From Bdellovibrionota bacterium (GTDB lineage Bacteria; Bdellovibrionota_C; UBA2361; CALJRW01), in the NCBI GenBank assembly GCA_041740355.1, contig JBGSMD010000016.1, forward strand, positions 1-64,000: a stretch of 64,000 nt of DNA, in the 5' to 3' direction. The position numbers and the translations under genes are program-made. The notes beneath the pieces were generated by a model, which saw only the letters and a list, made by a program, of their open reading frames with translations, was not told the DNA's origin and made no database searches. Positions within the stretch are counted from its first letter, which is position 1. Every line of letters begins with the position of its first letter. Below, piece after piece: positions 34,305 through 62,734 of this stretch.

Positions 34305-35020
34305 TGATTAGAATCTAATGTTAAGTCGTCGTAGCAATTAGCCATTTCCATAAGATTATTCATCTCTGATTCAACACGATGAATCATTTCTAATAATTCC
34401 TGTTCACTAAGCTGTCTAGCTATAGTGATTGGCTTACCAATTAAAAAAGTACCCTTACAAAATGGTTTTGGTAAAATCATCTTGTCCCAGCTTTTAAATT
34501 GCCAAAAGGAATTTGTGCTAATGACTAAAGGAAAGATAGGTGTGCCAGTCGCCATTGCTAATTGAATAACTCCACGCTTTAATTTATAAATTGGGCCTCG
34601 TGGTCCATCAGGAGTTATTACCGCGGAAAAACCTTTGTTTATCAGGTCAATTAATGCAAGTAGTGCTTCCTTACCGCCTTCAGTGGAAGATCCTGCTACG
34701 GAATTGATATTAAATCTTTTAACTGTTTTCGCTATTAATCTTCCATCGGTATGTTTGGAGATCATTACATAGGGAGTTGGAGTATTTTGAAGCTTTAGTC
34801 CTAATAATAACTGCGGCATGGTTAGCTGTTGATTATGCCAAAAGGACATGATGACCGGTTTTGTTTGAAATACTTCTTGGGATGATGGGTCTAAGAATTG
34901 GTAATCCCATCGTTGGGTTGAGTAAAGTATTTTTAGAAAATAGTATCCTAAAAAGGAACCCACATTCACCATAAAAGTTCTTTTAATCTTCTTCCACTTA
35001 GACATAGCTCTGAACAACAT
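34289..35020 (-). CDS. DUF374 lysophospholipid acyltransferase family (LpxJ-like)
   Basis: FWH, S.H.DG, GSS..GG, TPDGPRGP, SWDKM.LPKPF; lipid A gene context. Confidence 0.85.
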   Translation of the reverse strand: MLFRAMSKWKKIKRTFMVNVGSFLGYYFLKILYSTQRWDYQFLDPSSQEVFQTKPVIMSFWHNQQLTMPQLLLGLKLQNTPTPYVMISKHTDGRLIAKTVKRFNINSVAGSSTEGGKEALLALIDLINKGFSAVITPDGPRGPIYKLKRGVIQLAMATGTPIFPLVISTNSFWQFKSWDKMILPKPFCKGTFLIGKPITIARQLSEQELLEMIHRVESEMNNLMEMANCYDDLTLDSNHQATQ

Positions 35021-48137: not shown

Positions 48138-50075
48138 ATGTCATCTGGCAGTAAAATTATTTCTAAAGCTTCATTATCAAGTGAGGAGATAGTTTTCTGT
48201 GAAGAATTACTAAGTAAACTTGGAATTCAAGGCGCCTTTCTTGGTGCCCTGAAAAGTTTCTACGGAGCGATTAGTCCGGTAATCCTCCAAGGGAAGCAAC
48301 TCAAAGTCTTGAAATTGACGACGCCAATTCCCTCTGCTGAGAAAATACTATTGTCACAATTAGATTCTCGTTATCAAGAATTAAATAAGTTTTATCCAGA
48401 ACAGATTAATCAATTTGGTACCATTGGGAAATATTTTTATTATTTGAGATCTTTTGAACGCAGCACTCTGCCAGATTATTTAGAAGAAATTTCAATTAAA
48501 GTTGCTGAAGCTAATTATTTTGTTACTAAAATTTTAAATTTAATTTTGGATTTAAAGCGGATAAATTTTCCTCATGGGCACATAAGTCTAAATAATTTAA
48601 TTATCGATGAGAAAAATTTGACGTTAGTTGATTTTGGATTTGCCTTTAGCAGTAGTAAAAGTCCCGGTGTTAAATTAACAGAGGGAACTTATTTAGCTCC
48701 CGAGAGTAATCGCACTTTAACGTCTGATTTTGCTACTGATATATATTCATTTGGTAAAATTATTAAGTTTCTATATCGAGGTCTACAGTGTCCGATACCT
48801 TTAGATTTACCCGACCTCATGTGCGATCCGGATCCCCGAAAACGCCCAAGTTTGATTGATGTAAATAATAAGATTACTGAGACTTTTACTCAGAAACGAA
48901 ATCAGACAGAGCACTGGAGTAAATCGGCAATTTTTAATAATGAGCTTGATCCTAGTAAATTGTATAAAGGCTATTTAAGTCCAGCAATTTTAGAACAAAT
49001 TCGGCAAGAATTCGCTAAGAGTATGATTCCGGCTCCTATTGCTCCCGCCATAGTCACTCCGCCAACTCCACCCCCAGTTGTTGCACCTGTAATCCAAAAT
49101 GAATTAGCAAGAATTGAAGTTAAAAAAAATGATCCAAACTTTATTCTTACTGCAATTGCAGTCGGAAGCTTGTTGTTGGTAATTTACGTATGGAGAACGT
49201 CTTCCTCGCCAGAGCCTACTAATGTTAATCCTAACAATCAGCAACAGTTCCAAAATAATAATCTAATCACGACTCCCAACACATTTATACCAGAACCAGT
49301 TAAAATGACCGTTCAGTTTTTGGAGCAAAATAAAATTAATCGACCCCAAGACTATCAGCAGATTTTATCAGATATATATAATGCCAATTATCAAAGTGGT
49401 AAGCTTACAGCCTTTATTAGTCCGATCGAAAATGTAGAGGCACAATTAATTAAAGTGCAGGCGCTAGTTTTGTTAGTGGCCAGTAATCCCAATTTATTGG
49501 ATCTGATTTATCAAGACCTTGAAGCCAATAAGATTTTAGTAAAATATATTCACTGGTTTAAATCAAATACAATATTGGACTGGAGAGAAGTGGCAAATCC
49601 CTTAAAGTTAATGATTCTATCGGGAAATATTCCAGAGACAACTTTACCTTTAGAGTTTTATTTTGATTTAGCAAAGCACTTTAACCCTCAAATCCAAAAA
49701 GCTACTCGTTTGCCACTGAATGCTAAGATTAACGGGGAAGAACAGAAAGAGTTTTATTTAGTTCTGCTGAATCAAATTGATCAATTTGATCGTAATAATT
49801 TAAATTTTCTAACTTTAGCTCTAACTAAAGAAAAGGATTTGCAGTTAGCCTTGATTTCCGAGTGGTTTGATAATACCAAGCCTAAAAATGAATTAGTCTT
49901 TAACTTAGTCCGTGCTCGTAAAAAGCCAGTGGAAGGGCAAGACTATTTTAGTTTTTATGCTGCAAGATATCTACGGGAATACTTGAGTACTTTACCGCTA
50001 GTGGAGTTAGAGAAATTAAAAAATCATCATGAAAAGCAATTGACAATTTTTTACCAAATAAAAAAGGGAGGCTAA
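48138..50075 (+). CDS. Ser/Thr protein kinase-like membrane protein (probable pseudokinase)
   Basis: PHGHISLNN, DFG, YLAPE, DIYSFG, RP; Pro-rich linker, TM helix, large C-terminal domain. Confidence 0.75.
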   Translation: MSSGSKIISKASLSSEEIVFCEELLSKLGIQGAFLGALKSFYGAISPVILQGKQLKVLKLTTPIPSAEKILLSQLDSRYQELNKFYPEQINQFGTIGKYFYYLRSFERSTLPDYLEEISIKVAEANYFVTKILNLILDLKRINFPHGHISLNNLIIDEKNLTLVDFGFAFSSSKSPGVKLTEGTYLAPESNRTLTSDFATDIYSFGKIIKFLYRGLQCPIPLDLPDLMCDPDPRKRPSLIDVNNKITETFTQKRNQTEHWSKSAIFNNELDPSKLYKGYLSPAILEQIRQEFAKSMIPAPIAPAIVTPPTPPPVVAPVIQNELARIEVKKNDPNFILTAIAVGSLLLVIYVWRTSSSPEPTNVNPNNQQQFQNNNLITTPNTFIPEPVKMTVQFLEQNKINRPQDYQQILSDIYNANYQSGKLTAFISPIENVEAQLIKVQALVLLVASNPNLLDLIYQDLEANKILVKYIHWFKSNTILDWREVANPLKLMILSGNIPETTLPLEFYFDLAKHFNPQIQKATRLPLNAKINGEEQKEFYLVLLNQIDQFDRNNLNFLTLALTKEKDLQLALISEWFDNTKPKNELVFNLVRARKKPVEGQDYFSFYAARYLREYLSTLPLVELEKLKNHHEKQLTIFYQIKKGG

Positions 50076-50088
50076 AGCCTCCCTTTTT
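50061..50088. terminator. Bidirectional intrinsic terminator
   Basis: AAAAAGGGAGGC-TAAA-GCCTCCCTTTTT between convergent genes. Confidence 0.85.
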
Positions 50089-50112
50089 GTTTTTACTAGA
50101 ACGTTCCTTATT

Positions 50113-50565
50113 CTAGTTGGCTGGAGCCGTAATGTTAGTATTGGAACTAGTTTCACACTCATCCAGTATTGTAGTACCAAAGAAAGTATTAACTAATGAA
50201 CGTAGGATGAAGGCACCAATAGCCACTGCTAATAATCCTAAGGCAGCTTTATACTGTCCAAAGGCCGCACTGACGATTGCACCAATTCCAGCAATAATCA
50301 TAATTAAGGCACCGAAAGCACCCTCAATGAAATCTAGGATTGCACAAATAATTGCCTTAAATTGTCCTTGTTGAATTTCAAACTTTTTGGTTCCACCATC
50401 ACCAGCAGCAAGAACTAAGTCTGTAACTCCCAAGTTAATCAACATGACACCTAAAAATAGATAACAATACATTTTCGTATTATCACTAGGATTCTTTATA
50501 ATTGCGCCTAGCTTTTGGCTAGTAGCGAGATAATTTTTGTTTAATTTATTAATAATATTTTTCAT
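50113..50565 (-). CDS. TrbC/VirB2/TraA-like conjugative-type pilin
   Basis: Long leader ending VLA/A, then two Gly/Ala-rich TM helices separated by a short basic loop (GQYK); follows traX. Confidence 0.7.
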   Translation of the reverse strand: MKNIINKLNKNYLATSQKLGAIIKNPSDNTKMYCYLFLGVMLINLGVTDLVLAAGDGGTKKFEIQQGQFKAIICAILDFIEGAFGALIMIIAGIGAIVSAAFGQYKAALGLLAVAIGAFILRSLVNTFFGTTILDECETSSNTNITAPAN

Positions 50566-50668
50566 TTTAAATTTACTATGTAAAATTTCGTTAAAGAATC
50601 ATAGTTTTTCTTTAACCCTTAGTTCCTACTCTAAACTTATTGTAAAGATCACTCAATTACTAGAATGA

Positions 50669-51373
50669 TCATTCTATTAACAAATGGATGATCACCAAGA
50701 GTATTAAATGTAAGGGGTAAAAGGCGTAAAAAAAATATTTATAGCGATTTATAAAATCTAATTTCCAAGGTGCTCTCCAGCAAAAATAAAAAATCACTGG
50801 CAAATAAGCAATAATAGCGACAAAGCTTACAAGTGAGTTATTTAAAAAATAACAAGAAATCAGGGTAAAAAGTGCGAAATCCAAGGTGCGATGGACTAAC
50901 AAGCTACTAATGGTTAGTCCAAAGATAATAGCAGGGGCGCCATAATCAAAGTAAAAGGGGACTTGAAATAAACGTAAACCTAAAAATAATAATATGATTA
51001 TAGAAACAATCCAATAGTAGTTCCAGGCAGATCGTTTAATCAGCGCTAAGCTAAAGTGTAATGTTAGTCCTAAAAATCCTAGTGTAAATAAAATATTAAG
51101 TAATAATGGATCATGAAACGCTAAGTAGAAGGGAAGTTGTGAAAGTACCGCAAATATGAATATACGTTTCAGATATTTAAAGGGATTTTTAGAATTATAT
51201 TGAAGATTTAAAACCAACAACAACACAAAGAGTGGCATTGCTATTCGTCCGAATTTTGTTCCGAATGAATCTGGTGAAAGATAAAGTATTTTAGTAACAT
51301 GATCGACGATCATGCTCGCTAGGGCCCAAAGCTTTAGGGCATTAAGATTGAGATTAATTTTCTGCTCTTTCAT
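50669..51373 (-). CDS. traX: TraX family membrane acyltransferase
   Basis: LK..A...M..DH, GRIAMPLF, SQLPF, NILFTL, DYG, FYAFYPLH. Confidence 0.88.
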   Translation of the reverse strand: MKEQKINLNLNALKLWALASMIVDHVTKILYLSPDSFGTKFGRIAMPLFVLLLVLNLQYNSKNPFKYLKRIFIFAVLSQLPFYLAFHDPLLLNILFTLGFLGLTLHFSLALIKRSAWNYYWIVSIIILLFLGLRLFQVPFYFDYGAPAIIFGLTISSLLVHRTLDFALFTLISCYFLNNSLVSFVAIIAYLPVIFYFCWRAPWKLDFINRYKYFFYAFYPLHLILLVIIHLLIE

Positions 51374-51921
51374 TAACCTTCTGCTTCAACTAACAAGCCC
51401 GGAAAAATTTTAAGTGGATCCAAGGCTTTGCCATTTCTTCTAATTTCAAAATGAAGATGGGGACCGGTTGCTAAGCCAGTACTACCAACATAGGCAATAA
51501 TTGCTCCAGCTTTTACTTTTATCCCCGGCTTAACTATGTTTTTGGTATTATGCCCATAGTGACTAGATGTTCCATCAGGATGAAGAATGACGACGAGATT
51601 TCCATATCCCGCATGGGGATCAGAAAAGACTACGATACCATTGGCAATTGCTCTGATTGGAGATTCTTTAGGCGCTGCTAAATCGAGCCCATCATGGTGA
51701 CGAATGGCTTTGCTTACAGGGTGTTTTCTGGTACCAAAATTACTACTTAGTCGGGCATCCATTAAAGGATAAATGTAGGAAGTTTGGCCAGCACGATCTA
51801 GAGGCGGACCTTGAGATTCTAAATTAAAAGTAAAAAGCACGAGAACTATTAAGATCGGGCCACAGAAATTAAGAGTTGCCTTTAATAAGTTTAAGGGCTC
51901 TAGCTTCCACGTCATGATCAT
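51373..51921 (-). CDS. M23 family peptidoglycan endopeptidase
   Basis: SS.FG.R.HP, HDGLD, YGN.V.I.H, YGH, GSTG.ATGPHLHFE. Confidence 0.93.
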   Translation of the reverse strand: MIMTWKLEPLNLLKATLNFCGPILIVLVLFTFNLESQGPPLDRAGQTSYIYPLMDARLSSNFGTRKHPVSKAIRHHDGLDLAAPKESPIRAIANGIVVFSDPHAGYGNLVVILHPDGTSSHYGHNTKNIVKPGIKVKAGAIIAYVGSTGLATGPHLHFEIRRNGKALDPLKIFPGLLVEAEG

Positions 51922-53008
51922 ATCCTTGAACCTTTACTGTTGATGTTTCTTCGTTAAAACCGTTTGGGACTGTTTCCGTTACATCAGCGGAAATCCAAGC
52001 TCTAACACCATTAGGAGCTATTACTCTAAACCAAGCACCTTGTTTCTGTTCTACAACAAGACGAGAGCCTCCAGCAAGTTCCATTAATGGGGAGTGATTC
52101 ATACCAGGTCCTGTTCGAAGATTTGCTTTATCAACTGCTACTTTTACAACAGGCATATCTGAATTTTGTTCTGCTTCAGCATCATCAGCAATTTTATTAA
52201 CAGCAGGCGCTTCTTTCTTACTTTCGCGATCCATTGGTTTTAAGCCAAGGACTTTGCGATTTTGGTCTTCCAATATTGTTGAAAGTCTTTCTACTTCAGT
52301 TTCGGCCAGAAGTAATTGTAAATTTAACTTTTCAGACTGGCTTTCAAATTTTTGATTTAATTCAGCCTCAATTGTTTGATACCCTTGATTAGCAACTTTT
52401 AATTGAGAAATTTCATCTCCTTGACCCTTAACCTGCTCTGATAAAGTTTTAATTTGACTTTCAGATTGGTTAGTAAGTGAAATCTTCATTGCTTCTAATT
52501 CCTTAGCAAATTCACTTCTAATTTGAGCAATCTCTTGATCTTTTTTTAACAACTCTTCGTTTTTTTTAGCAATTGTTTGCTCAAGGTTGGTAATGTCTGA
52601 CTTAACTTTATCAGCTATTGAATTATTTTCAGTAGTCTTGTTTTTGGGAGTTTCAGTGTTTGTTTTTGCAACTACTGACTTAACAGTAATTTCTTGTTTT
52701 TTTTCTAATGGCTTGAGGGTCTTTTGTTCCACAGGTTTAACTGTCGTTGTTGGTTTCATTACTGCCAGTTGTTTTTTTTGAACTACTTCTGTTTTTGCCG
52801 TTCCAATTGGTGTCTTCGACTTAATTTGTCCAGATAAAGAACTCTCTAGAGCTTTTAATCTAGCTTCTGCTTGATCAAGCTCTTCCACATTTAAATTAAA
52901 ATCATAGGAAGCTTTAATCGCCTTATTGTCATTGTTGACTGGCGTATCAGCGAAAACGGAAACAGTTAATGCAAATGAAGGAATGATTAACCAAGATAAA
53001 TTTTTCAA
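51869..53008 (-). CDS. Exported coiled-coil protein with C-terminal SH3b domain
   Basis: Signal peptide VFA/D, long coiled coil, ANLRTGPG...W.RV....G..AWI; start moved to TTG 53008 (GGAGG RBS). Confidence 0.82.
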   Translation of the reverse strand: MKNLSWLIIPSFALTVSVFADTPVNNDNKAIKASYDFNLNVEELDQAEARLKALESSLSGQIKSKTPIGTAKTEVVQKKQLAVMKPTTTVKPVEQKTLKPLEKKQEITVKSVVAKTNTETPKNKTTENNSIADKVKSDITNLEQTIAKKNEELLKKDQEIAQIRSEFAKELEAMKISLTNQSESQIKTLSEQVKGQGDEISQLKVANQGYQTIEAELNQKFESQSEKLNLQLLLAETEVERLSTILEDQNRKVLGLKPMDRESKKEAPAVNKIADDAEAEQNSDMPVVKVAVDKANLRTGPGMNHSPLMELAGGSRLVVEQKQGAWFRVIAPNGVRAWISADVTETVPNGFNEETSTVKVQGYDHDVEARALKLIKGNS

Positions 53009-53039
53009 CACAAAACCTCCAAATAAAGTGGGTATGACA

Positions 53040-53546
53040 TTAATCAGATTGATGATTTCGAAGACGGGCATCTCTTTCGCGCTCTAACATATCTTTAATT
53101 TCATATGGTGCGTCAATTCCTTGCAGAAAAACTTCATTCTCTGCTGAGGCGGCTGTCCCAATCTCGATTGCTCCAACATCTAACATTCTTTCAATGATTG
53201 TTTGATGTATATCAATCCCCCTGATATCTTCATATCGGACACGGTTAACTGTTTGCTTCATAGAAAGTCGTCCCGAACATGATTCAATACCACGATTATC
53301 TACTCGGTAGATGACATTATAAATCTTAAAGATGCAGGAAAATAAATAAGATACTGGAATTAGCCAGAGGATAGGTAAAGCCAGATAGACCTTGTACCCA
53401 TTAAGATTAAAGATATGTCCATGGAGAGTAAGGAAGGTGAATTTATTTGACAATATAATGCAACCAACTGATAATATTAGGAAAATTGCGATACTGCTGA
53501 CCTCGGAACGCCACACTTTATGAATAATAACCTCTGATTTAATCAT
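53040..53546 (-). CDS. Membrane protein with bacterial PH domain
   Basis: Two TM helices, then Y.V....I....G.L.......RY.DI..I.I.Q....RM..VG.I.I.TA. Confidence 0.8.
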   Translation of the reverse strand: MIKSEVIIHKVWRSEVSSIAIFLILSVGCIILSNKFTFLTLHGHIFNLNGYKVYLALPILWLIPVSYLFSCIFKIYNVIYRVDNRGIESCSGRLSMKQTVNRVRYEDIRGIDIHQTIIERMLDVGAIEIGTAASAENEVFLQGIDAPYEIKDMLERERDARLRNHQSD

Positions 53547-53550
53547 TTTA

Positions 53551-53820
53551 TTAACGGAACATTTCTTCTAGATCTTTTAACGAGCTGCTTTTCGAGCCAT
53601 TATTATTTTTATTATTTGTTGAATCATTACGTGTATCTGAACGAGTTTCTGTTTTCGGAAGGAAGGGAGCCGTTTTCCCTTCTTTGACAAACTCAAATTT
53701 ACCACCAGAAAGCCTTAGAATAGTAAATGCAATCACTACCAGGATAATCGAAGTTAGGTGTAACTTGTTGGTAAAAGGACTAATTATGTTCTTTGTGCTG
53801 ATTAATGCCATATATAACAC
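53551..53820 (-). CDS. Small membrane-anchored hypothetical protein
   Basis: 89 aa, one TM helix, 4 bp from the next gene. Confidence 0.65.
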   Translation of the reverse strand: MLYMALISTKNIISPFTNKLHLTSIILVVIAFTILRLSGGKFEFVKEGKTAPFLPKTETRSDTRNDSTNNKNNNGSKSSSLKDLEEMFR

Positions 53821-53932
53821 TCCAAATTTTAGGCTACTCCTGATTATGATAGCTCTAAATTTCTGCCGTAGATCTTAAAACATAGTTTAGATTAACCCGA
53901 GTAGGATTAAAATTCAAATATCTTTAGTTAAA

Positions 53933-54155
53933 TATAGAGATTCCAAAAAAGGATTTCCGTTAAGGAAATTACTTTTTGGTGTATACTATCCCCCGAAGTG
54001 AAAATAAAATCATATAGTTAAGACAAAAATCACAAAACTAACTTTTAAATATTCGGAAATTGCTTTTTGTCATAATTATAGTAAGTCCAAAAAGTAACTT
54101 CCTTTGGGAATTCCTTTTTGGGGCTTACTATCCCCCTGAGGGATAATAAAATCAT
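53933..54155 (+). mobile_element. TATAGT MITE-like element, subtype 2, 1.5 tandem units sharing TATA at 54077-54080
   Basis: Colinear with 37963-38109, then the left half repeats. Confidence 0.85.
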
Positions 54156-54250
54156 TCTTGGGTTTAGTATGATTACAAAATCAAAAAACCTAATATTCTT
54201 TAAGCAAATTAAACTTCCAGTCTTGAGCGGGAGTAGTTTTAAATAATTAG

Positions 54251-54586
54251 CTACTTTTCTTGTTCAATATCTTTAGGTTGCTCATATCTCCAGCGACCCT
54301 GGCGAATTTCCACAACCTCTTCGTGGGCAGGTCGATAGTAAATTCCTTCCGGATCGAGCCCAGGGGGGACTTTAATTACATCTACAATTGGGGGTTCCCA
54401 GACATATTCAACGGCACCGGGGTCTTTAATTGTAATTGTTTCAACTTTCTCTTTCTCGACAAAGACTGCTTCTTTCGTATACTTTGAAGAACAAGAAACA
54501 AAGCTAGTCAGAAGGACAAGCAAAGTGAAAAATTTTAATTTAGTCATAAACTTATAAGTGTTAAATTCAAATTTATTCCGTATCAA
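54251..54586 (-). CDS. Lipoprotein, second TraV-like protein
   Basis: Lipobox FVSC; VIKVPPGLDPEGIYYRPAHEEVVEIRQGRW parallels the TraV C-terminal motif. Confidence 0.6.
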   Translation of the reverse strand: MIRNKFEFNTYKFMTKLKFFTLLVLLTSFVSCSSKYTKEAVFVEKEKVETITIKDPGAVEYVWEPPIVDVIKVPPGLDPEGIYYRPAHEEVVEIRQGRWRYEQPKDIEQEK

Positions 54587-57311
54587 GTCTTTGCCAAGAA
54601 TCGGAGCGATCTAAGATATTTTTTTCTGGTTCCGGTTCCGTTTCCTCCGGAGTCGGGTTCATCACCATTTTTCCACGCACAGATTTGGCACCAAGGGGAG
54701 CCATTTTAATTGCTTGTAGAAAGGCTTGTACATGATCACCATTACAACGCTTAACCAAATCAGCATAGAATTGGTTATCATCACCATTGTTAGTGCTAGC
54801 CCAATAGAAAGATGCTTCTAATGGCAAGACTAAGGCTGACTCCCCAATATCTGATAGCAAGTAGAATTGCGATTCCAAACCCATAACAGTTTTTAGCTGA
54901 GTGATAACACTTGCTTGTTGCTCTGTTAGATTAAAAGCTTTCGCAGTTAAGTGAAATTTACTTGGATCCTGTTTTAAGAAAATTTTATGGGCCGAGTTTT
55001 GTACAATGGCCTGGCCACCTTCTCCCACATAAAAATCTTCTGCCGACTGAGATGCTGCAATTACCAGTCCTTTTCTTTTACGATAAAGACGAAAAGCTGT
55101 TTCAATAGTTTTAGCAGAAGTTTTACCAATTAGATCATGGGCCTCATCAAAGACAAGCAGCTTTCTGGTATCTAATTCATTTGGATCGTTCATTACTTCA
55201 TCGGCCCAAAGCATTGCTACTTTTAAAAATACACGTTGCAAATCAGGATTACGACTTAAGGATTTTAAGTCAAATACAATCAGTCTCTCTGTTAATTCTA
55301 AAGCGCCAGCACGGTCAAAAAAGTTTGAATAAATTCCATCACCATAATAATCGCTGATTAGAATTGAAACCCTTTGTCGGCGTAATGCTTCTTCCTCGTT
55401 TTCATCAACTTTTTTAGGAGCACGAAGAACGGAAATTACATCACTTAAAATTAACTCTCGACGTCGCGGGCCGTTATAATAAATTCGGTGAGCTTCAATA
55501 AGTGAATCTCTCACGGCGCTTCGGTCCAATCGATCAGGCTGGGTTGTGGCATCGGTTGCCATATCCAAGATAACATCAACTGCCATGTCAATTAAATCTT
55601 TATAATCTTCGTTGGAATTATCTCCGGGTGTTTTCCCCAGTCGAGAAAGGAAATTCATTGCTGGAGCTTTTGCTGGAGTTGCTTCGTAAATTTTACCACC
55701 AAAAATATGAGCCAAGCGTTCAAATCCACAAGGCTGACCGGTCATACCCTTGTCAAAGATAAAGGCGATTGGAGATTTATCAACAACTTCTCCATCAAGT
55801 TTATGAGAAAAATGTCCTCTCATTAATGTTATAATTAGGAAACAAAGTAGATATGATTTACCAGCACCAGAGACTCCGCTGATTAGAACGTTCGGTGCCA
55901 TGTTAGAATCATATAGATCAAATCCAACTAGTTCACGATTCCAAAGGCTTGGTAAAACGAATAAAGGATTCTTACTGCCATGCCAGTTGCCCCAAATAGG
56001 AAACAAGCGAACAGCCCGCGAGGAGCGCATCATGGTTGTCCAACCTTCGCCATCTGTAGTTGGATCATAGCAACCCGGCAGGGTATTTAACATTACACCC
56101 ATGTCGGAGATCAGGTGCGTCATTCCGCGTGCACCATTTAATTGAGGAAATCCAGCCACAGCTTCGGAGCTAGCACGGATTACTTCATCTGCGGTTTCAC
56201 AAACAAATGTTTGATGGACACCGACACGAACAATTTGTGAAGTATTGCTATAAAGTTCTTGTCTTGCAGCTCTAATTGTACCAATTTGTGTTTGAACTTT
56301 TTGGTTGGAGCGACCTCCGGGAGTTCTTAATCTTAGTCCCATAAAGCCATCAATCGCATCGAGTCTTTTAATTTGATCTTGAACAGAATCCTTAGAAAAT
56401 GTTACGGATAGTAAATTTTCATAGGGAGTAGATTGCATTGGTGTAATCATCAAAGGCAAGCATCTTTTAGGGGGCTTAACCATGGAAACAGTTCTAAAAT
56501 AACGGCCATCTTTTTTAATAATTCCATCTTCTGGGTGTTCCGCAGGGGTTTCTGAAATCTGATTTGCCAGTAGATCTAATGGGTCGTACAAGGGAACAGG
56601 GACTGCTGTATTTCTACCATGACGAGACTTTGAACCTTTGGTACTGCGGCGATTTAAGATTGGATACAACAGGTCAATTAAATCTTGGGCATGAAACATT
56701 TTCGGAGTCATGCCATTATCTCTAAATTTAACAATACTACCCTCGATGACCCCTCGAAATTTAGAAGCATAGCCTTGATACTCTTTACGACGCATTGTTG
56801 CGCTGACACCAACCTTACCCTTCAAAAGTAATTCCACTGTTCTTTGGATTTGTTGTTTAAGACCTATAGCTCTCCATGGGGGATCGTAACGAAAAGCCAC
56901 AATTAATCTTTGGTGTCTAGGTCGACGATGTAAAGCATGATTACGAGCTGAAGTTCTAATTGATTTTACCCAACGCCGAGCCATCCAACCAGCAACACCA
57001 GAAGTAGGAAAGGCGGTTAGAGATGAACGCAAAAGATTTTCAACATCAAAGGTTGTTGTCCAGATCATTTGCAGACTAATACTGGGTTCAAAGGAGTCAA
57101 CCATCTCTTGAATGCTATCAGAAATGTGAAATGCTTCATGATCGGAAACTGTTACCAGAATCTTTGGTGTTACCTCCCAAATTGACCAGAGTGAGGCATC
57201 AGAATTAATAAACACACCATTATCTTCATCATATTTGGAATAGGCCAAGAGCGAATTAAATAATGTTTCATCTTGATATAATCTATTTCTGGTAATTCTG
57301 TTGATGCTCAT
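54573..57311 (-). CDS. traC: VirB4/TraC family T4SS ATPase
   Basis: 912 aa; Walker A GVSGAGKS, FDKG, Walker B VFDEAH, R.YRK..G....ASQS, QNS....L.Q. Confidence 0.9.
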   Translation of the reverse strand: MSINRITRNRLYQDETLFNSLLAYSKYDEDNGVFINSDASLWSIWEVTPKILVTVSDHEAFHISDSIQEMVDSFEPSISLQMIWTTTFDVENLLRSSLTAFPTSGVAGWMARRWVKSIRTSARNHALHRRPRHQRLIVAFRYDPPWRAIGLKQQIQRTVELLLKGKVGVSATMRRKEYQGYASKFRGVIEGSIVKFRDNGMTPKMFHAQDLIDLLYPILNRRSTKGSKSRHGRNTAVPVPLYDPLDLLANQISETPAEHPEDGIIKKDGRYFRTVSMVKPPKRCLPLMITPMQSTPYENLLSVTFSKDSVQDQIKRLDAIDGFMGLRLRTPGGRSNQKVQTQIGTIRAARQELYSNTSQIVRVGVHQTFVCETADEVIRASSEAVAGFPQLNGARGMTHLISDMGVMLNTLPGCYDPTTDGEGWTTMMRSSRAVRLFPIWGNWHGSKNPLFVLPSLWNRELVGFDLYDSNMAPNVLISGVSGAGKSYLLCFLIITLMRGHFSHKLDGEVVDKSPIAFIFDKGMTGQPCGFERLAHIFGGKIYEATPAKAPAMNFLSRLGKTPGDNSNEDYKDLIDMAVDVILDMATDATTQPDRLDRSAVRDSLIEAHRIYYNGPRRRELILSDVISVLRAPKKVDENEEEALRRQRVSILISDYYGDGIYSNFFDRAGALELTERLIVFDLKSLSRNPDLQRVFLKVAMLWADEVMNDPNELDTRKLLVFDEAHDLIGKTSAKTIETAFRLYRKRKGLVIAASQSAEDFYVGEGGQAIVQNSAHKIFLKQDPSKFHLTAKAFNLTEQQASVITQLKTVMGLESQFYLLSDIGESALVLPLEASFYWASTNNGDDNQFYADLVKRCNGDHVQAFLQAIKMAPLGAKSVRGKMVMNPTPEETEPEPEKNILDRSDSWQRLDTE

Positions 57312-57314
57312 ATT

Positions 57315-57785
57315 TTACTTGGCAAATTGTGGAATAATTCGTTCTCCTGATAGCAAGCGAACTTCTCTATTAATCGAATCGATCATTACTTTAACATTAT
57401 TTTCTTGTTCGATTAAGTCCTTAAGTTCATAGGGAGTTAAAATTTTCGTTACAGCATACTTCCTCTCTCCTAAGCTTGGGGCACAGTAATAATGATACTT
57501 AAAAGAAGTTGCTAAAGCTTGGCCAACTTCACAAAGTGTGGCTTCAGGCAAATCATAATTAAAACGTTTAACAATTACTTTTTTACTGTGAAGACTGGGA
57601 AACTCTTTATATCCAGGGGAAGAGGAGCGCACATTGGCTACTGGGTAATAAACTGGTGGTGGTTTTGTCTGCGTATCTGCTACTGGATAGGGACGTTCAG
57701 GCAGTGGCTCAGCCGGATTAGTACTTGACGAACAGGCTAATATTCCTGTTGTAAGTGTTAAAAAAACTAGCATTTTCTGAAACAT
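57315..57785 (-). CDS. Lipoprotein with Pro-rich linker and possible N0/DotD-like domain
   Basis: Lipobox ILAC; beta-alpha-beta-beta-alpha-beta-beta-like pattern at the C-terminus (inferred). Confidence 0.55.
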   Translation of the reverse strand: MFQKMLVFLTLTTGILACSSSTNPAEPLPERPYPVADTQTKPPPVYYPVANVRSSSPGYKEFPSLHSKKVIVKRFNYDLPEATLCEVGQALATSFKYHYYCAPSLGERKYAVTKILTPYELKDLIEQENNVKVMIDSINREVRLLSGERIIPQFAK

Positions 57786-57791
57786 TAATTT

Positions 57792-58220
57792 TTACTTTCT
57801 AATATAGGGCAAATTAGATGTGCTAGTTGCACCGTTGTTTAATTGTGATTCTAACTCAAAGGCATCTTGCAAATTCCAGCGTTCATCAAGAACTTTTAGA
57901 TAGTAATAATGCGCGGGAATTAAGTCACCATAAGAGTTAAGGTGATCGGGGATCCACATTAATCGAACCACGGCAGGCTTCATTACCGGATTTACTGGTT
58001 GCGGCGGAAGGGCAGCTTGATAACTACCAACTTGCTCCAAAACTTCTCGTGCTTGCTTGCCTTTATTATTATCCGGATTTAAGGCGTCATCATTAGCCTC
58101 ACCTTGGAGTGCCATATCAGAAGGTGGTTCATAAAAGGGATTTACAACTTTACCAATTGTGCCACAGGCTGAAAGCAAGCCTAGAAAAATACATAATACT
58201 ATTTTTAATTTCATAATCAT
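57792..58220 (-). CDS. traV: TraV family lipoprotein
   Basis: Lipobox LSAC; PVMKPAVVRLMWIPDHLNSYGDLIPAHYYYLKV...W; lies between traB and traC. Confidence 0.78.
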   Translation of the reverse strand: MIMKLKIVLCIFLGLLSACGTIGKVVNPFYEPPSDMALQGEANDDALNPDNNKGKQAREVLEQVGSYQAALPPQPVNPVMKPAVVRLMWIPDHLNSYGDLIPAHYYYLKVLDERWNLQDAFELESQLNNGATSTSNLPYIRK

Positions 58221-58335
58221 TTAACCGTGATAGCAATTCCGTAAAGTAATCAACATACAAACTCTTTTGAAGTTTATTTAAAGATGATTACTGAACTTAT
58301 TTTTTGTAGACATCCAACTAAATTTACTATTTATA

Positions 58336-59478
58336 CTAATCTAAGGATGCAAATGTTAGATTAGGGTCTTCCATTGATTCAAACAAGCCATCAAGTTCGA
58401 CATTTTGAGAAAAAACAGCAGTTGCACTTCGACCTGAAAGAACTTTTACATGAGGGACTAACATTTTAGAACGTTCTTTAATATAACCACTCCAGTTAGA
58501 TCCAGCTTGAGAAACCCCACGACCAAGTCCATATTCTAAGGAGTCACCAGTAAGTGCTTGGCTAAATCCGCCCACGCCATTTGTTTGAGTACTAATTTGA
58601 GCCTGGGACATTCCTTGACCAACACCTGCAACGGTTCCGGCAATTAATTCTCCTGCTAAAACTTTACCAATTGGGTCAATTAGAATTCCTTCCATTCCCC
58701 GTATTCCATCCTCCCCAACAATCCAGCCATCAACATCGACAACTTTTCTTGAGCCATCAGGATAGCGCATACTCATTTTATTTAAACGAAAAAGAGCTCG
58801 CTGATCAATTAATGAACCAGTTGCCGCTGCTAAAATTCTTGCTTCACCCAAAGGAAGTACCGCACCATCAGGGCCAAGTACATCACTATCTAGTTGGAAC
58901 AAAACTGGATACGGATCACCATCAATCGGAGCATTGGCTCCGGCCAACAACTTTAAACGAACGGAGTCACCAGCCGCAATAAAAGCAATCTTGGCTGGTT
59001 CTGGCTTAACAGGAGGGGCAACTAATTCAGCACTATCTTCTTCCCAAATTGATTCTAAAGTGTTGGCGTCTAAATTTTCTGGTGTCACTGCAGCGGTGTT
59101 ATATCCTTTGACAGCTTCAGAAGATTCTTCCAAACCTCGAACACGCTCAATTACTTTGGCTAAGATTTTAGCAGTTTGTTCTTCTGTCTCAGCAGTTCGT
59201 TCCACGATTTTTTGCTTGTCAGCTTCCAATTCTTGAATACGACGTTCAAGTTCAGCTTTTTGATTTAAGTTGAATTCTAATAATTCACTACTAGCTTTAT
59301 CGGCGGAGGTTGCCCCAGCAGTTGAATCGATTTGATTAGCAGCAACGCCTCTACTTCGACGAGGTTTATTATCAGCAAAAGTACCAACTAAGATTACTAA
59401 GACCAGACCGACCAACAGAATCTGCCATTTACGGTCATTTTTAATTAATTGAACTAAATCATTAAGCTTCTGCTTCAT
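58336..59478 (-). CDS. traB: TraB/VirB10 family T4SS core protein
   Basis: TM helix, coiled coil, LL.GA.AP, A.GSL...RA.FRL, GWIVGEDGIRGM.G; start ATG 59478 after GGAGG. Confidence 0.85.
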   Translation of the reverse strand: MKQKLNDLVQLIKNDRKWQILLVGLVLVILVGTFADNKPRRSRGVAANQIDSTAGATSADKASSELLEFNLNQKAELERRIQELEADKQKIVERTAETEEQTAKILAKVIERVRGLEESSEAVKGYNTAAVTPENLDANTLESIWEEDSAELVAPPVKPEPAKIAFIAAGDSVRLKLLAGANAPIDGDPYPVLFQLDSDVLGPDGAVLPLGEARILAAATGSLIDQRALFRLNKMSMRYPDGSRKVVDVDGWIVGEDGIRGMEGILIDPIGKVLAGELIAGTVAGVGQGMSQAQISTQTNGVGGFSQALTGDSLEYGLGRGVSQAGSNWSGYIKERSKMLVPHVKVLSGRSATAVFSQNVELDGLFESMEDPNLTFASLD

Positions 59479-59904
59479 TATAACCTCCAAAACCTGTTTT
59501 TGACGATTTAAAAGTAACTAAATCGAGAAACATAGGGAATTTCATTATTCCAGGAACCTATCGGACTTTTTATCTAATATGCTTCAGACAAATAGATAGA
59601 TTTTCACGACCTTAATTTCTTAAATCTAAATATAACATCGGCCACTTCTTAAGCTTAACTTAAGTAAAAATATCAAAATATCTAAGTTTTTAAGGCCAAC
59701 AGCTTTAAAATCCTAATTTATGCTTTAAGGAATTATGTTTTAGGTTCCAAGTTCTCACAATAAAAATATTGAACTTTGAAACCTTGATTCGTGTGGTGCT
59801 AAAACAAAAGCTACGGCTATTATTCGCGTTTTTAGCTAGATAATAAACTAAACACTTACCATCTGCTTAATAAAATCTAAAAGATTTGGACAACAAATTT
59901 TTAG

Positions 59905-60687
59905 CTACTGAGCTTTGGTAATTACATAAACTTTGGCTCGGTGTGAACCGGCAAGTTGTTGTTCGCTAGTAAAGGGAGTAGGAGATAGCTCCCATCTCTC
60001 AGCCATAATCGCCTTTGTTCCATCAACACGAAAAGTAGCAGGATTGACTTGTTGATTACTGGAAAGCAAGTTTTCAACATTTAGGACATAGCCCCAAAGA
60101 TCCGCTCCCATATAGATTTGGTCAATTGTTGCCATCATAGTTCCATCGTTAAGGATTACTTCTCCGGCATGTTGATCGCTTGTGCGATAGCCTGGAATTT
60201 TCTTTTTGCCAAATTCAACAGCTAAGACTAATTCTTTCATCAAGCCACTGACCGAATTTGATTGAGCCTGTGGAAATTGCTTGCGATAATATTCAGGAAG
60301 TTCTTCTTCCTCGGGAATAATTGCCGCCATACCAGCGTTATCATTGATCGAGATAATATCATCTCTGGGGTTACTAGGGTCAGCTGGTTTAATTCGTAAG
60401 GAGTATGATTGTTCGTTTTCCAAAGTAACAATTAAGGCTTCACCGTTAGTACTAAGTTCTTCAGTTCCGAAAACAATTAATCTTTGTTCTTTCTTATCAA
60501 CAGTTAATGGAGCGCCTGTACGTTTAAAACCAGATTTAATTTCATTAGAAAAGTTAATTTGAGTGGGCTCACCGGGAGTTACGTAGATTGTAACCTCAGA
60601 ATTCTGATACTCAATCTCTCGAGCCATTGCGGAGCTGACAAAAATCAATAGCGAGGAAAGTGCTAAAACTAATTGGTTTATTTTCAT
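59905..60687 (-). CDS. traK: TraK/VirB9-like T4SS protein
   Basis: Signal peptide AMA/R, PTQI.F, YSL.I.P, Y.G..L.G....V.N, C-terminal VYVI; between traE and traB. Confidence 0.75.
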   Translation of the reverse strand: MKINQLVLALSSLLIFVSSAMAREIEYQNSEVTIYVTPGEPTQINFSNEIKSGFKRTGAPLTVDKKEQRLIVFGTEELSTNGEALIVTLENEQSYSLRIKPADPSNPRDDIISINDNAGMAAIIPEEEELPEYYRKQFPQAQSNSVSGLMKELVLAVEFGKKKIPGYRTSDQHAGEVILNDGTMMATIDQIYMGADLWGYVLNVENLLSSNQQVNPATFRVDGTKAIMAERWELSPTPFTSEQQLAGSHRAKVYVITKAQ

Positions 60688-60689
60688 AG

Positions 60690-61358
60690 TTACCTAGATG
60701 TTGATAATTCTAAATTACTTACAACAATACCATATGGATTGAATATATTCCTTGGGACAGTTGTTAAGTATACCGTATGTTTGATTTCTTGTCCTTCATA
60801 TTCTTGACCAGCAATAAATCTTACTTGTTCACCAACAAATGTAACACGCACATTACTTTCGTCAATTGCTTCAAAAACAGTTTTTTCGACATCCGCGAAG
60901 TAGATCTGCGTGCGTTGAGTTTGAGTAATTAAATTTAACTCAGTTTTTAACATTTCCAGTTCAAAACGACCCAGCATTGGTTCGATTAGATACTTTGATG
61001 CTTCACTAAATTGGCGGCCAGCAATTTTATATTGGTATGTAGAAATAAGATTAACAAATTCATTTGCCACACTAATAAATTCACTTTGTGGTATTTCACC
61101 AGCAGGATAATAACCGGGCAAAGGTTTTGCTGGAACGTTTAAATTTACTTGTTGGTTGGAATAAAAGAAAATTGCAGATACAATCGAAACAAAAGTTACC
61201 AAGATTTGTAATAGGGCTAAACCTCTCCACAATAAAGCTTGTTCTCGATAGTTCTCCCAAACACGAACAGTATCATTTTCAGTTCGGGCCTCTCGAAACG
61301 AAGTGTCGTTGATGATCTGTTTGACCTGTTTTTGAATTTTCTGTGATGGTTTATTCAT
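60690..61358 (-). CDS. traE: TraE/VirB8-like T4SS protein
   Basis: One TM helix, then A..FVNL..T, V...G....FI.G and terminal NPYGI.V motif. Confidence 0.75.
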   Translation of the reverse strand: MNKPSQKIQKQVKQIINDTSFREARTENDTVRVWENYREQALLWRGLALLQILVTFVSIVSAIFFYSNQQVNLNVPAKPLPGYYPAGEIPQSEFISVANEFVNLISTYQYKIAGRQFSEASKYLIEPMLGRFELEMLKTELNLITQTQRTQIYFADVEKTVFEAIDESNVRVTFVGEQVRFIAGQEYEGQEIKHTVYLTTVPRNIFNPYGIVVSNLELSTSR

Positions 61359-61752
61359 TAGAATATTTCTCCTCGTAGATCAGTTCAAACATCTCATCTA
61401 AATTTAAGTGAGAGTAATCTTTTTTTTCACTTACTTGTTTAATTGGTCCACCACTCCAGAGCGGTTGGATACTGGAGGGTCGGGGGATACCAGGCGGTGG
61501 CAATCCCATTGAGATCATAAATGAATTAGCAACCCCTCGCGTCCCATCGGGAAATTGTTTGCGCAGTGCAGCCATTCCAAATGTAATTCCTGCTAAAGTA
61601 GTTATGAATATTGGAGTACCACCAACAGGGCTAATTCCAAAGGCACTACCAATAAAGAGTGTCATCATGAACCCTGCTAGCCACTCTGTTAAGTTTGCCC
61701 CAATAAAGGTCCAACCTTCATTCAAGCCATTAATAACTTCTCCGTTATCCAT
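61351..61752 (-). CDS. TraL/VirB3-like small membrane protein
   Basis: I..GLNE.W.F.G....EW, two TM helices, (K)..PDG; directly upstream of and overlapping traE. Confidence 0.55.
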   Translation of the reverse strand: MDNGEVINGLNEGWTFIGANLTEWLAGFMMTLFIGSAFGISPVGGTPIFITTLAGITFGMAALRKQFPDGTRGVANSFMISMGLPPPGIPRPSSIQPLWSGGPIKQVSEKKDYSHLNLDEMFELIYEEKYSNE

Positions 61753-61755
61753 TAA

Positions 61756-62142
61756 TTACTTTAAATTATCAAAAATTTTAATATCTGGATCGTTCATCAC
61801 TCCCTCTTTAGAGATACGAGGTTGTGGACTAATAACAACGGTTAAATCATCAGCCAATTCACCGAGTTTAACGCGCCATTTTTCTTGATCTAGGATTGTT
61901 TCTGGACTTGCTATCCCTGCACCACGGTCAAATTCTTTAAGTGCCATCAGTAATAATTGTCTGGCACGAGAATAATGGCCAACTGCCTTTGAAAGGGCGG
62001 CCCCTTCGGCAACTTGAATACCCTCAGGTCCAGTTTCTGCGGAAACTGAAGAGAAAGATAATAGTAGTGTAATTAAAACCAGAGAAAACTTATTCATTTT
62101 GATTATGGGTAATATTCTAATTGCTATCACATGATAGCCCAA
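61756..62142 (-). CDS. Exported hypothetical protein, first gene of the tra-like operon
   Basis: Signal peptide MNKFSL...VSA/E (true start probably ATG 62097); 3 bp from the traL-like gene. Confidence 0.7.
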   Translation of the reverse strand: MGYHVIAIRILPIIKMNKFSLVLITLLLSFSSVSAETGPEGIQVAEGAALSKAVGHYSRARQLLLMALKEFDRGAGIASPETILDQEKWRVKLGELADDLTVVISPQPRISKEGVMNDPDIKIFDNLK

Positions 62143-62248
62143 AAATGATTCACTAAACAGACAAAATTATTCAAATTTTTACAAATCTTTCTATTGATTT
62201 TAATAAGCTACTGATATAACTTGGGAACTTCCTTTAAGCAGGTTTTCT

Positions 62249-62734
62249 ATGTACATCGGCGGAATTACATTTCACATCAATAAATCTTTTGCTAATTTGC
62301 AACTTGTTCCGGAGAGTCGGGGACTAAGAATAGTTTACAAGCCCGTAATTAATAATGTCGAGGTAGTGGAACACTTAGGCTTTATTGACCTTTTCTTACC
62401 AATTGATGCTGTGGGCGGACTGTGGGCAACAACGAAAGCATTTTTATATGCAGTAGAATCTTTGGATGAAAATATCATTTTACAAAATAATGGTACTGGC
62501 GATTCCACTAATGATATTTTGATAAAACTTTATCGTGATAAACCTCTTGGTGATCAAGGTAAATTAAATGGGCATGAAAGTTGTTGGTTAAGGATTGTAA
62601 ATGGGCGCAGTGAAGAGGAGCGTCGAAGAATTAAATTAGGGCCTCGCGATTTGCTTTGCTTAGAGCTTGCCTGTCAAAGTGTAATGACTATTGCCGGTGC
62701 CACTGCACAGCATAACCCTCAGAAGATTTCTTAG
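62249..62734 (+). CDS. Hypothetical protein, divergent from the tra-like operon
   Basis: 161 aa ORF with a weak RBS (CAGGT). Confidence 0.7.
   Translation: MYIGGITFHINKSFANLQLVPESRGLRIVYKPVINNVEVVEHLGFIDLFLPIDAVGGLWATTKAFLYAVESLDENIILQNNGTGDSTNDILIKLYRDKPLGDQGKLNGHESCWLRIVNGRSEEERRRIKLGPRDLLCLELACQSVMTIAGATAQHNPQKIS

Follow-up and report, generated by a model that had tools for sequence, protein, structure and literature searches.

A stretch of 64,000 nt from a Bdellovibrionota genome (hereafter the window; G000:C16:1-64000, part of a 252,935-bp contig) carries, at positions 50113-62142, a run of genes resembling the core of an F-like conjugative type IV secretion system (T4SS). The question raised by this locus is whether these genes belong to a mobile element or to the host itself and, if to the host, what the machine is for. 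An earlier reading of the letters alone (the original prediction) had taken the cluster for a minimal, domesticated F-like system, vertically inherited and repurposed. We show that it is the main locus of a chromosomal, host-owned T4SS of F-type descent, fixed and mainly vertically inherited in a phylum-rank uncultured lineage, and that the whole apparatus is distributed among three conserved loci: the cluster, a coupling protein gene on contig C39 and a second operon on contig C6. As to function, the analysis points to contact-dependent protein delivery into a prey, host or competitor cell, a reading that in our judgement has about an even chance of being right.

The window genome (G000) comprises 3.27 Mb in 74 contigs, is 97% complete and has a GC content of ~0.36. 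In the window's list of open reading frames (ORFs), 15 minus-strand ORFs fill 50113-62142 exactly. An exported protein, a TraL/VirB3-like protein, TraE, TraK, TraB, TraV, a lipoprotein and TraC/VirB4 are followed by a distal module that consists of a lipoprotein, a small transmembrane (TM) protein, a bacterial pleckstrin-homology (bPH) protein, a coiled-coil protein with a bacterial SH3 (SH3b) domain, an M23 peptidase, TraX and a VirB2-like pilin:

61756..62142, minus strand: g01, exported protein with a conserved helical domain of ~90 aa; first gene of the cluster
61351..61752, minus strand: g02, TraL/VirB3-like small inner-membrane protein (ESM-Atlas neighbours, position before traE)
60690..61358, minus strand: g03, TraE (VirB8-like), bitopic (orthologue matches; one TM segment, residues 47-65)
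59905..60687, minus strand: g04, TraK (VirB9-like outer-membrane core subunit) with a signal peptide (TraK_C, TraK_Ftype)
58336..59490, minus strand: g05, TraB (VirB10-like; TrbI/TraB 7.4e-15, over cut-off)
57792..58220, minus strand: g06, TraV lipoprotein (VirB7-like; Pfam TraV, lipobox LSAC)
57315..57785, minus strand: g07, lipoprotein of no known family (lipobox ILAC)
54573..57311, minus strand: g08, TraC/VirB4 ATPase (TraC_F_IV 5.2e-12, over cut-off)
54251..54586, minus strand: g09, small lipoprotein, weakly TraV-like (hhalign against TraV 37%, weak)
53551..53820, minus strand: g10, small single-pass membrane protein (TM residues 17-35; in nine loci by BLASTP)
53040..53546, minus strand: g11, two-TM protein with a bacterial PH domain (bPH_2 1.9e-7, over cut-off)
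51869..53071, minus strand: g12, anchored or exported coiled-coil protein with a C-terminal SH3b domain of the peptidoglycan-binding type (SH3_3 6.7e-9; 18 loci)
51373..51921, minus strand: g13, membrane-anchored M23 (LytM-type) peptidoglycan endopeptidase (Peptidase_M23 1.3e-33; 14 loci)
50669..51373, minus strand: g14, TraX/TrbP-type polytopic pilin acetylase (TraX 8.4e-30; TrbP 3.4e-12)
50113..50565, minus strand: g15, VirB2/TraA-like propilin with a long leader and a two-helix hydrophobic hairpin, beside TraX (TrbC/VirB2 1.7e-3)

Pfam and NCBIfam together name nine of the 15 ORFs, while six have no match as single sequences; single-sequence scans at loose thresholds also gave no family for the unnamed proteins of the cluster and of the C6 operon. 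The TraC_F_IV match of g08 (45.9 bits against a cut-off of 28.1) gives the ATPase an F-type N-terminal domain, and TIGR02746 (TraC-F-type) is its best NCBIfam model (3.6e-48, 164 bits). Since this score is far under the equivalog cut-off of 567 bits, g08 is a very divergent F-type member and not an equivalog. Both of its Walker motifs are intact, A being GVSGAGKS (residue 479) and B being LLVFDE (residue 718). A PDB profile search with g05 matched only F-type TraB structures (7spb and 7okn, at 1.5e-17). For g04, TraK_C matched at 3e-5 (24.5 bits, under the cut-off of 28.5) and TraK_Ftype at 2.6e-4, and its identity is 44-52% in distant loci and 93% in the same-genus (sister) genome, G041. The g03 sequence has no match alone and is called TraE because five of eight orthologues match PF05309, two of them over cut-off. 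The Pfam TraV match of g06 (2e-3, 19.5 bits against a cut-off of 21) is accompanied by an hhalign probability of 84% against plasmid TraV. The hhalign references consisted of one or two sequences each, from two plasmids, and the positive control, g03 against TraE, failed; thus the references are too thin, and only the 84% for TraV is convincing.

Pfam matched none of the nine g02 sequences scanned, a profile (alignment A2) found nothing among PDB sequences, and hhalign against a single TraL sequence gave a weak 11%. Among ESM-Atlas clusters, the closest ones contain VirB3 (28-53% of members) and TraL comes at rank 14, a lead only; the gene is kept in 19 loci and stands before traE as in F. The g01 orthologue, without a Pfam or NCBIfam match, is first in 19 loci and has a conserved GHYARAR...PQPR core (alignment A5), to which a long low-complexity tail is added in other orders. 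The true starts of g01 and traB probably lie a little 3' of the listed TTG codons, that of g01 being probably the Met that opens its signal peptide and that of traB lying near 59478. The g07 lipoprotein, with no Pfam match in eight sequences scanned, is found in 15 loci, at 69% identity in the same genus and 23-35% in distant loci, and g09, also without a Pfam match, lies directly 3' of traC in 20 loci. As judged from these sequences and from the order traL-traE-traK-traB-traV-traC, the cluster is a very divergent core of an F-type T4SS (mating-pair formation class F, MPF_F). The gene list of the original prediction proved correct item by item on Pfam/NCBIfam matches and orthologues, with TraL/VirB3 standing as an ESM-Atlas lead only.

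In the distal module, g10 matches nothing in Pfam or NCBIfam; g11, found in 16 loci, has TM segments at residues 14-32 and 55-73. The catalytic motifs of the g13 peptidase are intact (HxxxD at residue 76, HxH at 155). TraX is present at this position only in the window's genus (by BLASTP, the same-genus locus only, 1 of 20). The TrbC/VirB2 match of g15 is under cut-off, its best hhalign reference is TraA (22%, weak), and its alignment (A1) shows an invariant G/A-rich hairpin. An AlphaFold2 model predicts helices at residues 66-101 and 105-129 (pLDDT 73-88; mean pLDDT 69.8). Foldseek found no PDB match to this model at E <= 0.001, and the A1 profile gave nothing meaningful among PDB sequences (best E 0.13). 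The modelled helical hairpin is not diagnostic of a pilin.

Does the cluster belong to the host? Its GC content (0.35-0.40) is within the range across the window (0.33-0.41) and host-like, and its 15 genes are all intact, both as predicted. Relative to G041, dN is 0.05-0.37 and dS at least 0.88 or saturated, and the excess of dS over dN in all 15 genes indicates purifying selection on the cluster. The flanking ORFs are housekeeping genes, with neither integrase nor relaxase at either end of the cluster: riboflavin genes, an HD protein and a membrane kinase-like protein lie on one side, and a HEAT protein, isoleucyl-tRNA synthetase (IleRS), pseudopilins, FliW and HemF on the other. There is no tRNA gene in 40000-64000, Rfam matches nothing in 49900-62500, and the cluster is not bracketed by an att-like direct repeat. 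The statement that this is not an integrative conjugative element (ICE) is borne out by these flanks.

The distribution was determined in a phylum sample of 124 genomes, 73 of them high-quality. The relatives are metagenome-assembled genomes (MAGs) labelled Bdellovibrionota, Bdellovibrionales or Deltaproteobacteria, with no cultured organism among them. TraC is present once per genome in 121 of the 124 genomes and in all 73 high-quality ones, and a TraB profile gives the same counts (121/124 and 73/73), compared with 112/124 and 72/73 for the marker RpoB. Identity of TraC to g08 is 93% in the genus, 62-69% in the order and 55-62% in the class. Gene order was compared in 20 loci from 20 genomes, the number also used for TraC and RpoB identities and trees. 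The order from g01 to the M23 gene (and the pilin gene where found) is kept in 18 of these, and additionally in L120 and L124. The two exceptions belong to the small-genome family f22, in which TraC and TraB are on different contigs and profile models of 15 families from the cluster and the second locus found nothing within ±8.5 kb of TraC. The cluster is thus syntenic and not patchy.

Pairwise identities of TraC (49-93%, mean 62%) run in parallel with those of RpoB (53-98%, mean 66%), with a correlation of r = 0.90 that none of 2000 label permutations reached. In both single-gene trees, the genus pair, the f22 pair and a block of other orders are recovered. Outside the phylum the protein is remote. 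Among 1.84 billion representatives, the phylum's TraC forms one 50%-identity cluster (1363 bits), and the next full-length VirB4 follows at 191 bits and 30% identity. The nearest VirB4 clusters outside the clade are labelled only 'TraC', one of them coming from a Planctomycetota MAG. All 4006 plasmid records that match TraC do so at <60% identity, and the 25 matches listed cover 54-68% of the protein at 20-26% identity, which places this VirB4 far from those of plasmids.

Some results count against a strictly vertical, universal machine. Three of the 124 genomes have no TraC. One of them, G057, a single 2.28-Mb contig that is 82% complete, is without TraC, TraB and the coupling protein and keeps a thioredoxin-like and a TraG-like gene (locus L107); one genus may genuinely have lost the machine here, unless the genes are in the portion of the genome that the assembly lacks. 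The TraC and RpoB trees share only nine of 17 splits, and five well-supported TraC splits are absent from the RpoB tree, for which some exchange within the phylum or single-gene noise is possible. Inheritance is therefore called 'mainly vertical': for the proposed comparison of VirB4 with a species marker, the identities agree and the trees do so in part. Overall, the view that the cluster is repurposed and vertically inherited is strongly supported.

The original prediction erred in holding the system to be without a coupling protein and without TraG, a coupling protein and a TraG_N-like protein being encoded elsewhere in the genome:

G000:C39:66700-69069, strand not given: VirD4/TraG-type type IV coupling protein (T4CP), 790 aa (PF02534, PF10412, PF12696), among glycosyltransferase genes
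G000:C6, ~52450-58460: second-locus operon for a thioredoxin-like protein, one or more Cys-rich exported proteins and a TraG_N-like protein
L055:7502-8155 and L055:8162-9106 (G000:C6): the two small middle genes of this operon, 217 and 314 aa, each with its own signal peptide

The T4CP, which carries a TraG-D_C domain, is kept in 110 of the 124 genomes (67 of 73 high-quality) at 57-93% identity, and its Walker A (AKTGGGKT) and Walker B (VIDE) motifs are conserved and intact. BLASTP of its neighbours in five loci found no conserved partner gene. In the C6 operon, a 351-aa thioredoxin-like exported protein is followed by the 217- and 314-aa exported Cys-containing proteins and a protein of 1114 aa. 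The 1114-aa family is present in 108 of the 124 genomes. Pfam TraG_N is matched by 13 of 23 of its orthologues and paralogues, three over cut-off; the window genome's own copy has no Pfam match and is 33% identical to a matching orthologue. The thioredoxin-like gene gives generic thioredoxin-like matches only, in five of 16 orthologues and in the window genome's copy.

In each of 13 loci of the same order examined, the thioredoxin-like and TraG-like genes lie on either side of 1.5-1.9 kb of sequence. Of the 12 loci from outside the window's genus, 11 have here one 540-625-aa exported, Cys-conserving middle gene, and an ORF scan found none in L107; the two small genes of the window's genus show no BLASTP similarity to it. 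The nearest ESM-Atlas clusters of the middle protein carry TraH, a lead only, and a profile (A3) gave nothing meaningful against PDB sequences (best E 1).

The three loci come together in some genomes. In G050, the second operon is found immediately upstream of g01 and in the same orientation; the T4CP gene adjoins the TraG-like gene in G036 and is 5 kb upstream of g01 in G013, and in G014 and G042 it is within ~20 kb. In five genomes of other orders, the TraG_N-like gene is present as five tandem paralogues (L118, which is G011:C1:2762000-2781999, L119, L121, L122 and L123). These are 614-1167 aa long with only a short core in common, and in one (L123:9529-12018) the C-terminal part shows weak DUF4225 and SseC-translocator-like matches.

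Relaxases were sought by genome-wide family searches in five genomes (G000, G041, G011, G056 and G046). Families PF08751, PF03432, PF07514 and PF03389 gave no match in the last four, the relaxase (mobility, MOB) classes MOB_V, MOB_C, MOB_T and MOB_B being outside the search. In G000, relaxase matches (TrwC) are confined to C1, where the gene is intact, and C14, where it is interrupted by two TAA stops. Contigs C14 (L043), C1 (L046) and C60 (L047) carry the TrwC relaxase, a TrwB-type T4CP, ArdA, Abi, AAA_13 and PIN genes, and C33 (L056) carries VirB4, DUF4141, TrbL/VirB6, VirB8, VirB9 and VirB10. These contigs are small, with a GC content of 0.34-0.35 and strong canonical matches (VirB8 6e-40, CagX 1e-53, TrbI 7.5e-60), and TrwC, TrbL/VirB6 and the TrwB-type T4CP are absent from G041. 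Together, these properties identify a separate, strain-specific conjugative element of class MPF_T, not the missing half of the cluster, and it forms an internal contrast to the divergent host-owned system. The absence of a relaxase thus holds for the cluster and, for the four families, in four of five genomes; G000 as a whole does have TrwC, on the MPF_T element. The relaxase, second T4CP and full VirB-type T4SS of G000 are on C33, C14, C1 and C60 and not beside the cluster.

How might such a machine work? Going by what its homologues are known to do, TraL, TraE and TraC, with the TraG_N-like (VirB6-type) protein, would form an inner-membrane platform, and TraV, TraK and TraB an outer-membrane core. 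After cleavage, the g15 propilin would receive an N-acetyl group from TraX in this genus, and TraC would polymerise it into a pilus. The bPH, SH3b and M23 proteins may open the peptidoglycan locally, replacing the lytic transglycosylase of plasmid systems, and the thioredoxin-like protein may oxidise Cys-rich periplasmic parts. The pilus would make contact with another cell, and the T4CP would pass substrates into the channel.

Because the T4CP is conserved and catalytically intact without a relaxase, protein delivery on contact is the most likely function. According to the cited part of PMC3548315, T4SS that secrete proteins do not require a relaxosome and in most cases require a T4CP, and MOBless T4SS are interpreted there as exaptations. 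The feature set of such exapted systems is found here: a T4SS with a T4CP, fixed in the lineage, with no accompanying relaxase among the four families searched. On the other side, several points tell against protein delivery or the assignments beneath it. To our knowledge, the F-type systems that have been characterised all move DNA, and no effector family was recognised here. An unrecognised relaxase is conceivable, as four MOB classes fell outside the search. The pilin assignment of g15 is weak, with a Pfam match under cut-off and no Foldseek match. TraU (PF06834), TraH and TraN (PF06986) were found in none of the five genomes, with a positive E. coli control, as the original prediction had said of the cluster; for TraW and TrbC, the unnamed proteins of the cluster were compared by hhalign with single reference sequences, with negative results, no genome-wide family search being made. 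The middle protein of the second operon is not recognised as TraH by Pfam (0 of 14 orthologues) or hhalign (probability 0.1%). Finally, in the cited part of PMC3548315, protein delivery is shown only for MPF_T and MPF_I systems.

The alternative that survives best is a DNA mover owned by the host, which would release, take up or transfer chromosomal DNA, in the manner of the gonococcal F-type system or of H. pylori ComB, by way of an unrecognised relaxase or DNA-processing protein. Its F-type ancestry would fit, characterised F-type systems being translocators of DNA, as would a T4CP of the VirD4/TraG family with a TraG-D_C domain. We consider it unlikely, however. ComB-type uptake systems are not known to have a T4CP, unlike the system here, in which the T4CP is conserved. 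No gene is conserved beside the T4CP in five loci, and the four relaxase families are absent from four of five genomes. The system of the gonococcal genetic island (GGI) depends on a MOB_H relaxase (PMC3548315 and PMC12857230, in the parts cited), and PF07514 found none here in the same four genomes.

A machine that only builds pili, for adhesion, aggregation or retraction with no substrate translocation, could make use of the pilin, TraX and assembly core, and the mating-pair stabilisers TraN and TraU were not detected in five genomes. F-pilus assembly is not known to need a T4CP, yet an intact one is kept in 110 of 124 genomes, and the TraG_N-like genes are likewise kept, even multiplied to five copies; this makes a pilus-only organelle quite improbable. 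A decaying or cryptic ICE, or a resident transfer machine that persists because mobilisable elements make use of it, is largely refuted and very improbable: the relaxase and T4CP genes on other contigs of G000 are part of a separate MPF_T element that is complete in itself and that the sister genome lacks, and the cluster is near-universal (121/124), single-copy, syntenic, under purifying selection and set among housekeeping genes without tRNA, att site or integrase.

Protein delivery by an F-type machine can be compared with several known systems. The closest in build are F/pED208 MPF_F systems and the SXT/R391-IncA/C-like branch, with which the cluster shares the order traL-traE-traK-traB-traV-traC and the F-type N-terminal domain of TraC. 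Like MPF_F systems, it has a TraB that matches only F-type structures, TraX with a VirB2/TraA-like pilin, and a VirD4-family T4CP. The order and sizes of traF-traH-traG in a Klebsiella MPF_F plasmid (356, 483 and 1070 aa) are mirrored by the thioredoxin-like, ~580-aa exported and TraG_N-like proteins of the second locus. Unlike these systems, the cluster lacks a relaxase, an oriT context, an integrase and replication genes; TraU, TraH and TraN are undetected, and TraC is only 20-26% identical to plasmid TraCs (25 matches listed). Here also, the system is near-universal, single-copy and vertical, its parts are scattered over three loci, and a bPH, SH3b and M23 module takes the place of the lytic transglycosylase.

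In its genetics, the system recalls the rvh T4SS of Rickettsiales, which is lineage-wide and chromosomal, has no known relaxase and a conserved T4CP, and is split into several loci. The phylum-wide system likewise has a T4CP, no relaxase found and split loci, with TraC and TraB on different contigs in f22. The rvh system is rich in gene duplication (PMC4676284, in the part cited), as are the TraG_N/VirB6-like genes here, with five tandem paralogues in other orders. The two differ in that rvh is VirB/MPF_T-derived and resides in obligate intracellular bacteria of eukaryotes, whereas the present system is MPF_F-derived.

The X-T4SS of Xanthomonadales and Lysobacter, which kills bacteria, and Dot/Icm of Legionellales are exapted systems that inject proteins with T4CP-dependent recruitment, and are derivatives of MPF_T and MPF_I. 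No homologous effectors or recognition domains were identified here, unlike in those systems. Since killing X-T4SS act on other bacteria, such a function would suit a predator-related lineage. The GGI encodes a chromosomal F-type machine with a host use other than plasmid transfer, as here. It is a variable island that requires a MOB_H relaxase and secretes single-stranded DNA (PMC3548315 and PMC12857230, in the parts cited), whereas no MOB_H was found here with PF07514 and the system is fixed across the phylum. The T4SS of Patescibacteria, as far as the cited part of PMC12102498 goes, is also derived from conjugation and belongs to a large uncultured lineage thought to depend on other cells; it is of the monoderm conjugation type, and thus differs in VirB4 class and envelope. 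No description of the phylum's system was found in the literature searched, and 'Bdellovibrio' is absent from the cited text of the 2025 T4SS review PMC12857230.

Three further features lie in or beside the cluster:

59491..59904, no strand: traK-traB spacer of 414 bp, unique sequence (only a self-match in the genome; no Rfam match)
53821..54250, no strand: gap with two adjacent copies of a ~150-bp repeat resembling a miniature inverted-repeat transposable element (MITE), found by BLASTN
50061..50088, both strands: predicted bidirectional intrinsic terminator that closes the cluster (12-bp stem with six G-C pairs, T-runs on both strands)

The predicted 414-bp gap between traK and traB is therefore real; its counterpart in the same-genus genome measures 209 bp, and the frames abut or overlap in most other loci. 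The host MITE said to lie in the cluster is indeed present, in the gap at 53821-54250 and not between traK and traB. This repeat has 293 BLASTN matches in the genome (self included), across most contigs, and since many contigs begin or end in it, it is probably the cause of much of the assembly fragmentation. A promoter scan was uninformative (44 sites against 37.3 ± 6.6 in shuffles). The sequencing runs found to contain 52200-62142 were three DNA runs from a single study, with no RNA run listed.

The terminator is common to the pilin gene and a convergent gene at 48138-50075 (plus strand), which encodes a protein of 645 aa. This has one TM segment (residues 334-352) and weakly matches eukaryote-type protein kinases (8.4e-7). 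Homologues (24-29% identity, and 78% in the same genus) lie in the same place beside the pilin gene in L014, L023 and L025 (three genomes of three families); the protein could be a regulator or partner of the system. At the other end, a gene divergent from the cluster head (62249-62734, plus strand) encodes a 161-aa protein of no known family. The arrangement recurs with 94% identity in the same genus and 60% in a distant family (L033), and the protein is a candidate regulator. Elsewhere in the window, at 34998-37943 (minus strand), a 981-aa fusion joins LpxB (lipid-A-disaccharide synthase) to an MsbA-like ABC exporter (ABC_membrane and ABC_tran).

For the biology of this lineage, the system points to an obligatory cell-cell interaction, and offers a concrete handle on the way of life of bacteria that have no cultured representative. 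The parts of the system are dispersed in the manner of ordinary chromosomal genes, and the rate at which its ATPase evolves is nearly as low as that of RNA polymerase. The system provides a marker gene set by which the lineage can be recognised, and a natural experiment on which F-type parts become dispensable once DNA transfer is dropped, with TraU and TraN undetected, TraG multiplied, and M23, SH3b and bPH proteins added. The characterised exapted T4SS that deliver proteins descend from MPF_T and MPF_I, whereas here an F-type descendant is fixed phylum-wide. MOBless T4SS exaptations are described as late in evolution in the cited part of PMC3548315. We tentatively suggest, as a possibility that we hold to be somewhat doubtful, that the F-pilus-derived core is a near-essential grappling-and-injection organelle of the whole phylum, used to prey on other cells or to live at their expense, in which the five-paralogue TraG_N/VirB6-like arrays, with their divergent C-terminal halves, supply interchangeable parts that engage or penetrate the target. 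If true, no earlier example of an F-type descendant that delivers proteins would exist among T4SS, and this one would have originated at the base of a phylum, not by a recent exaptation.

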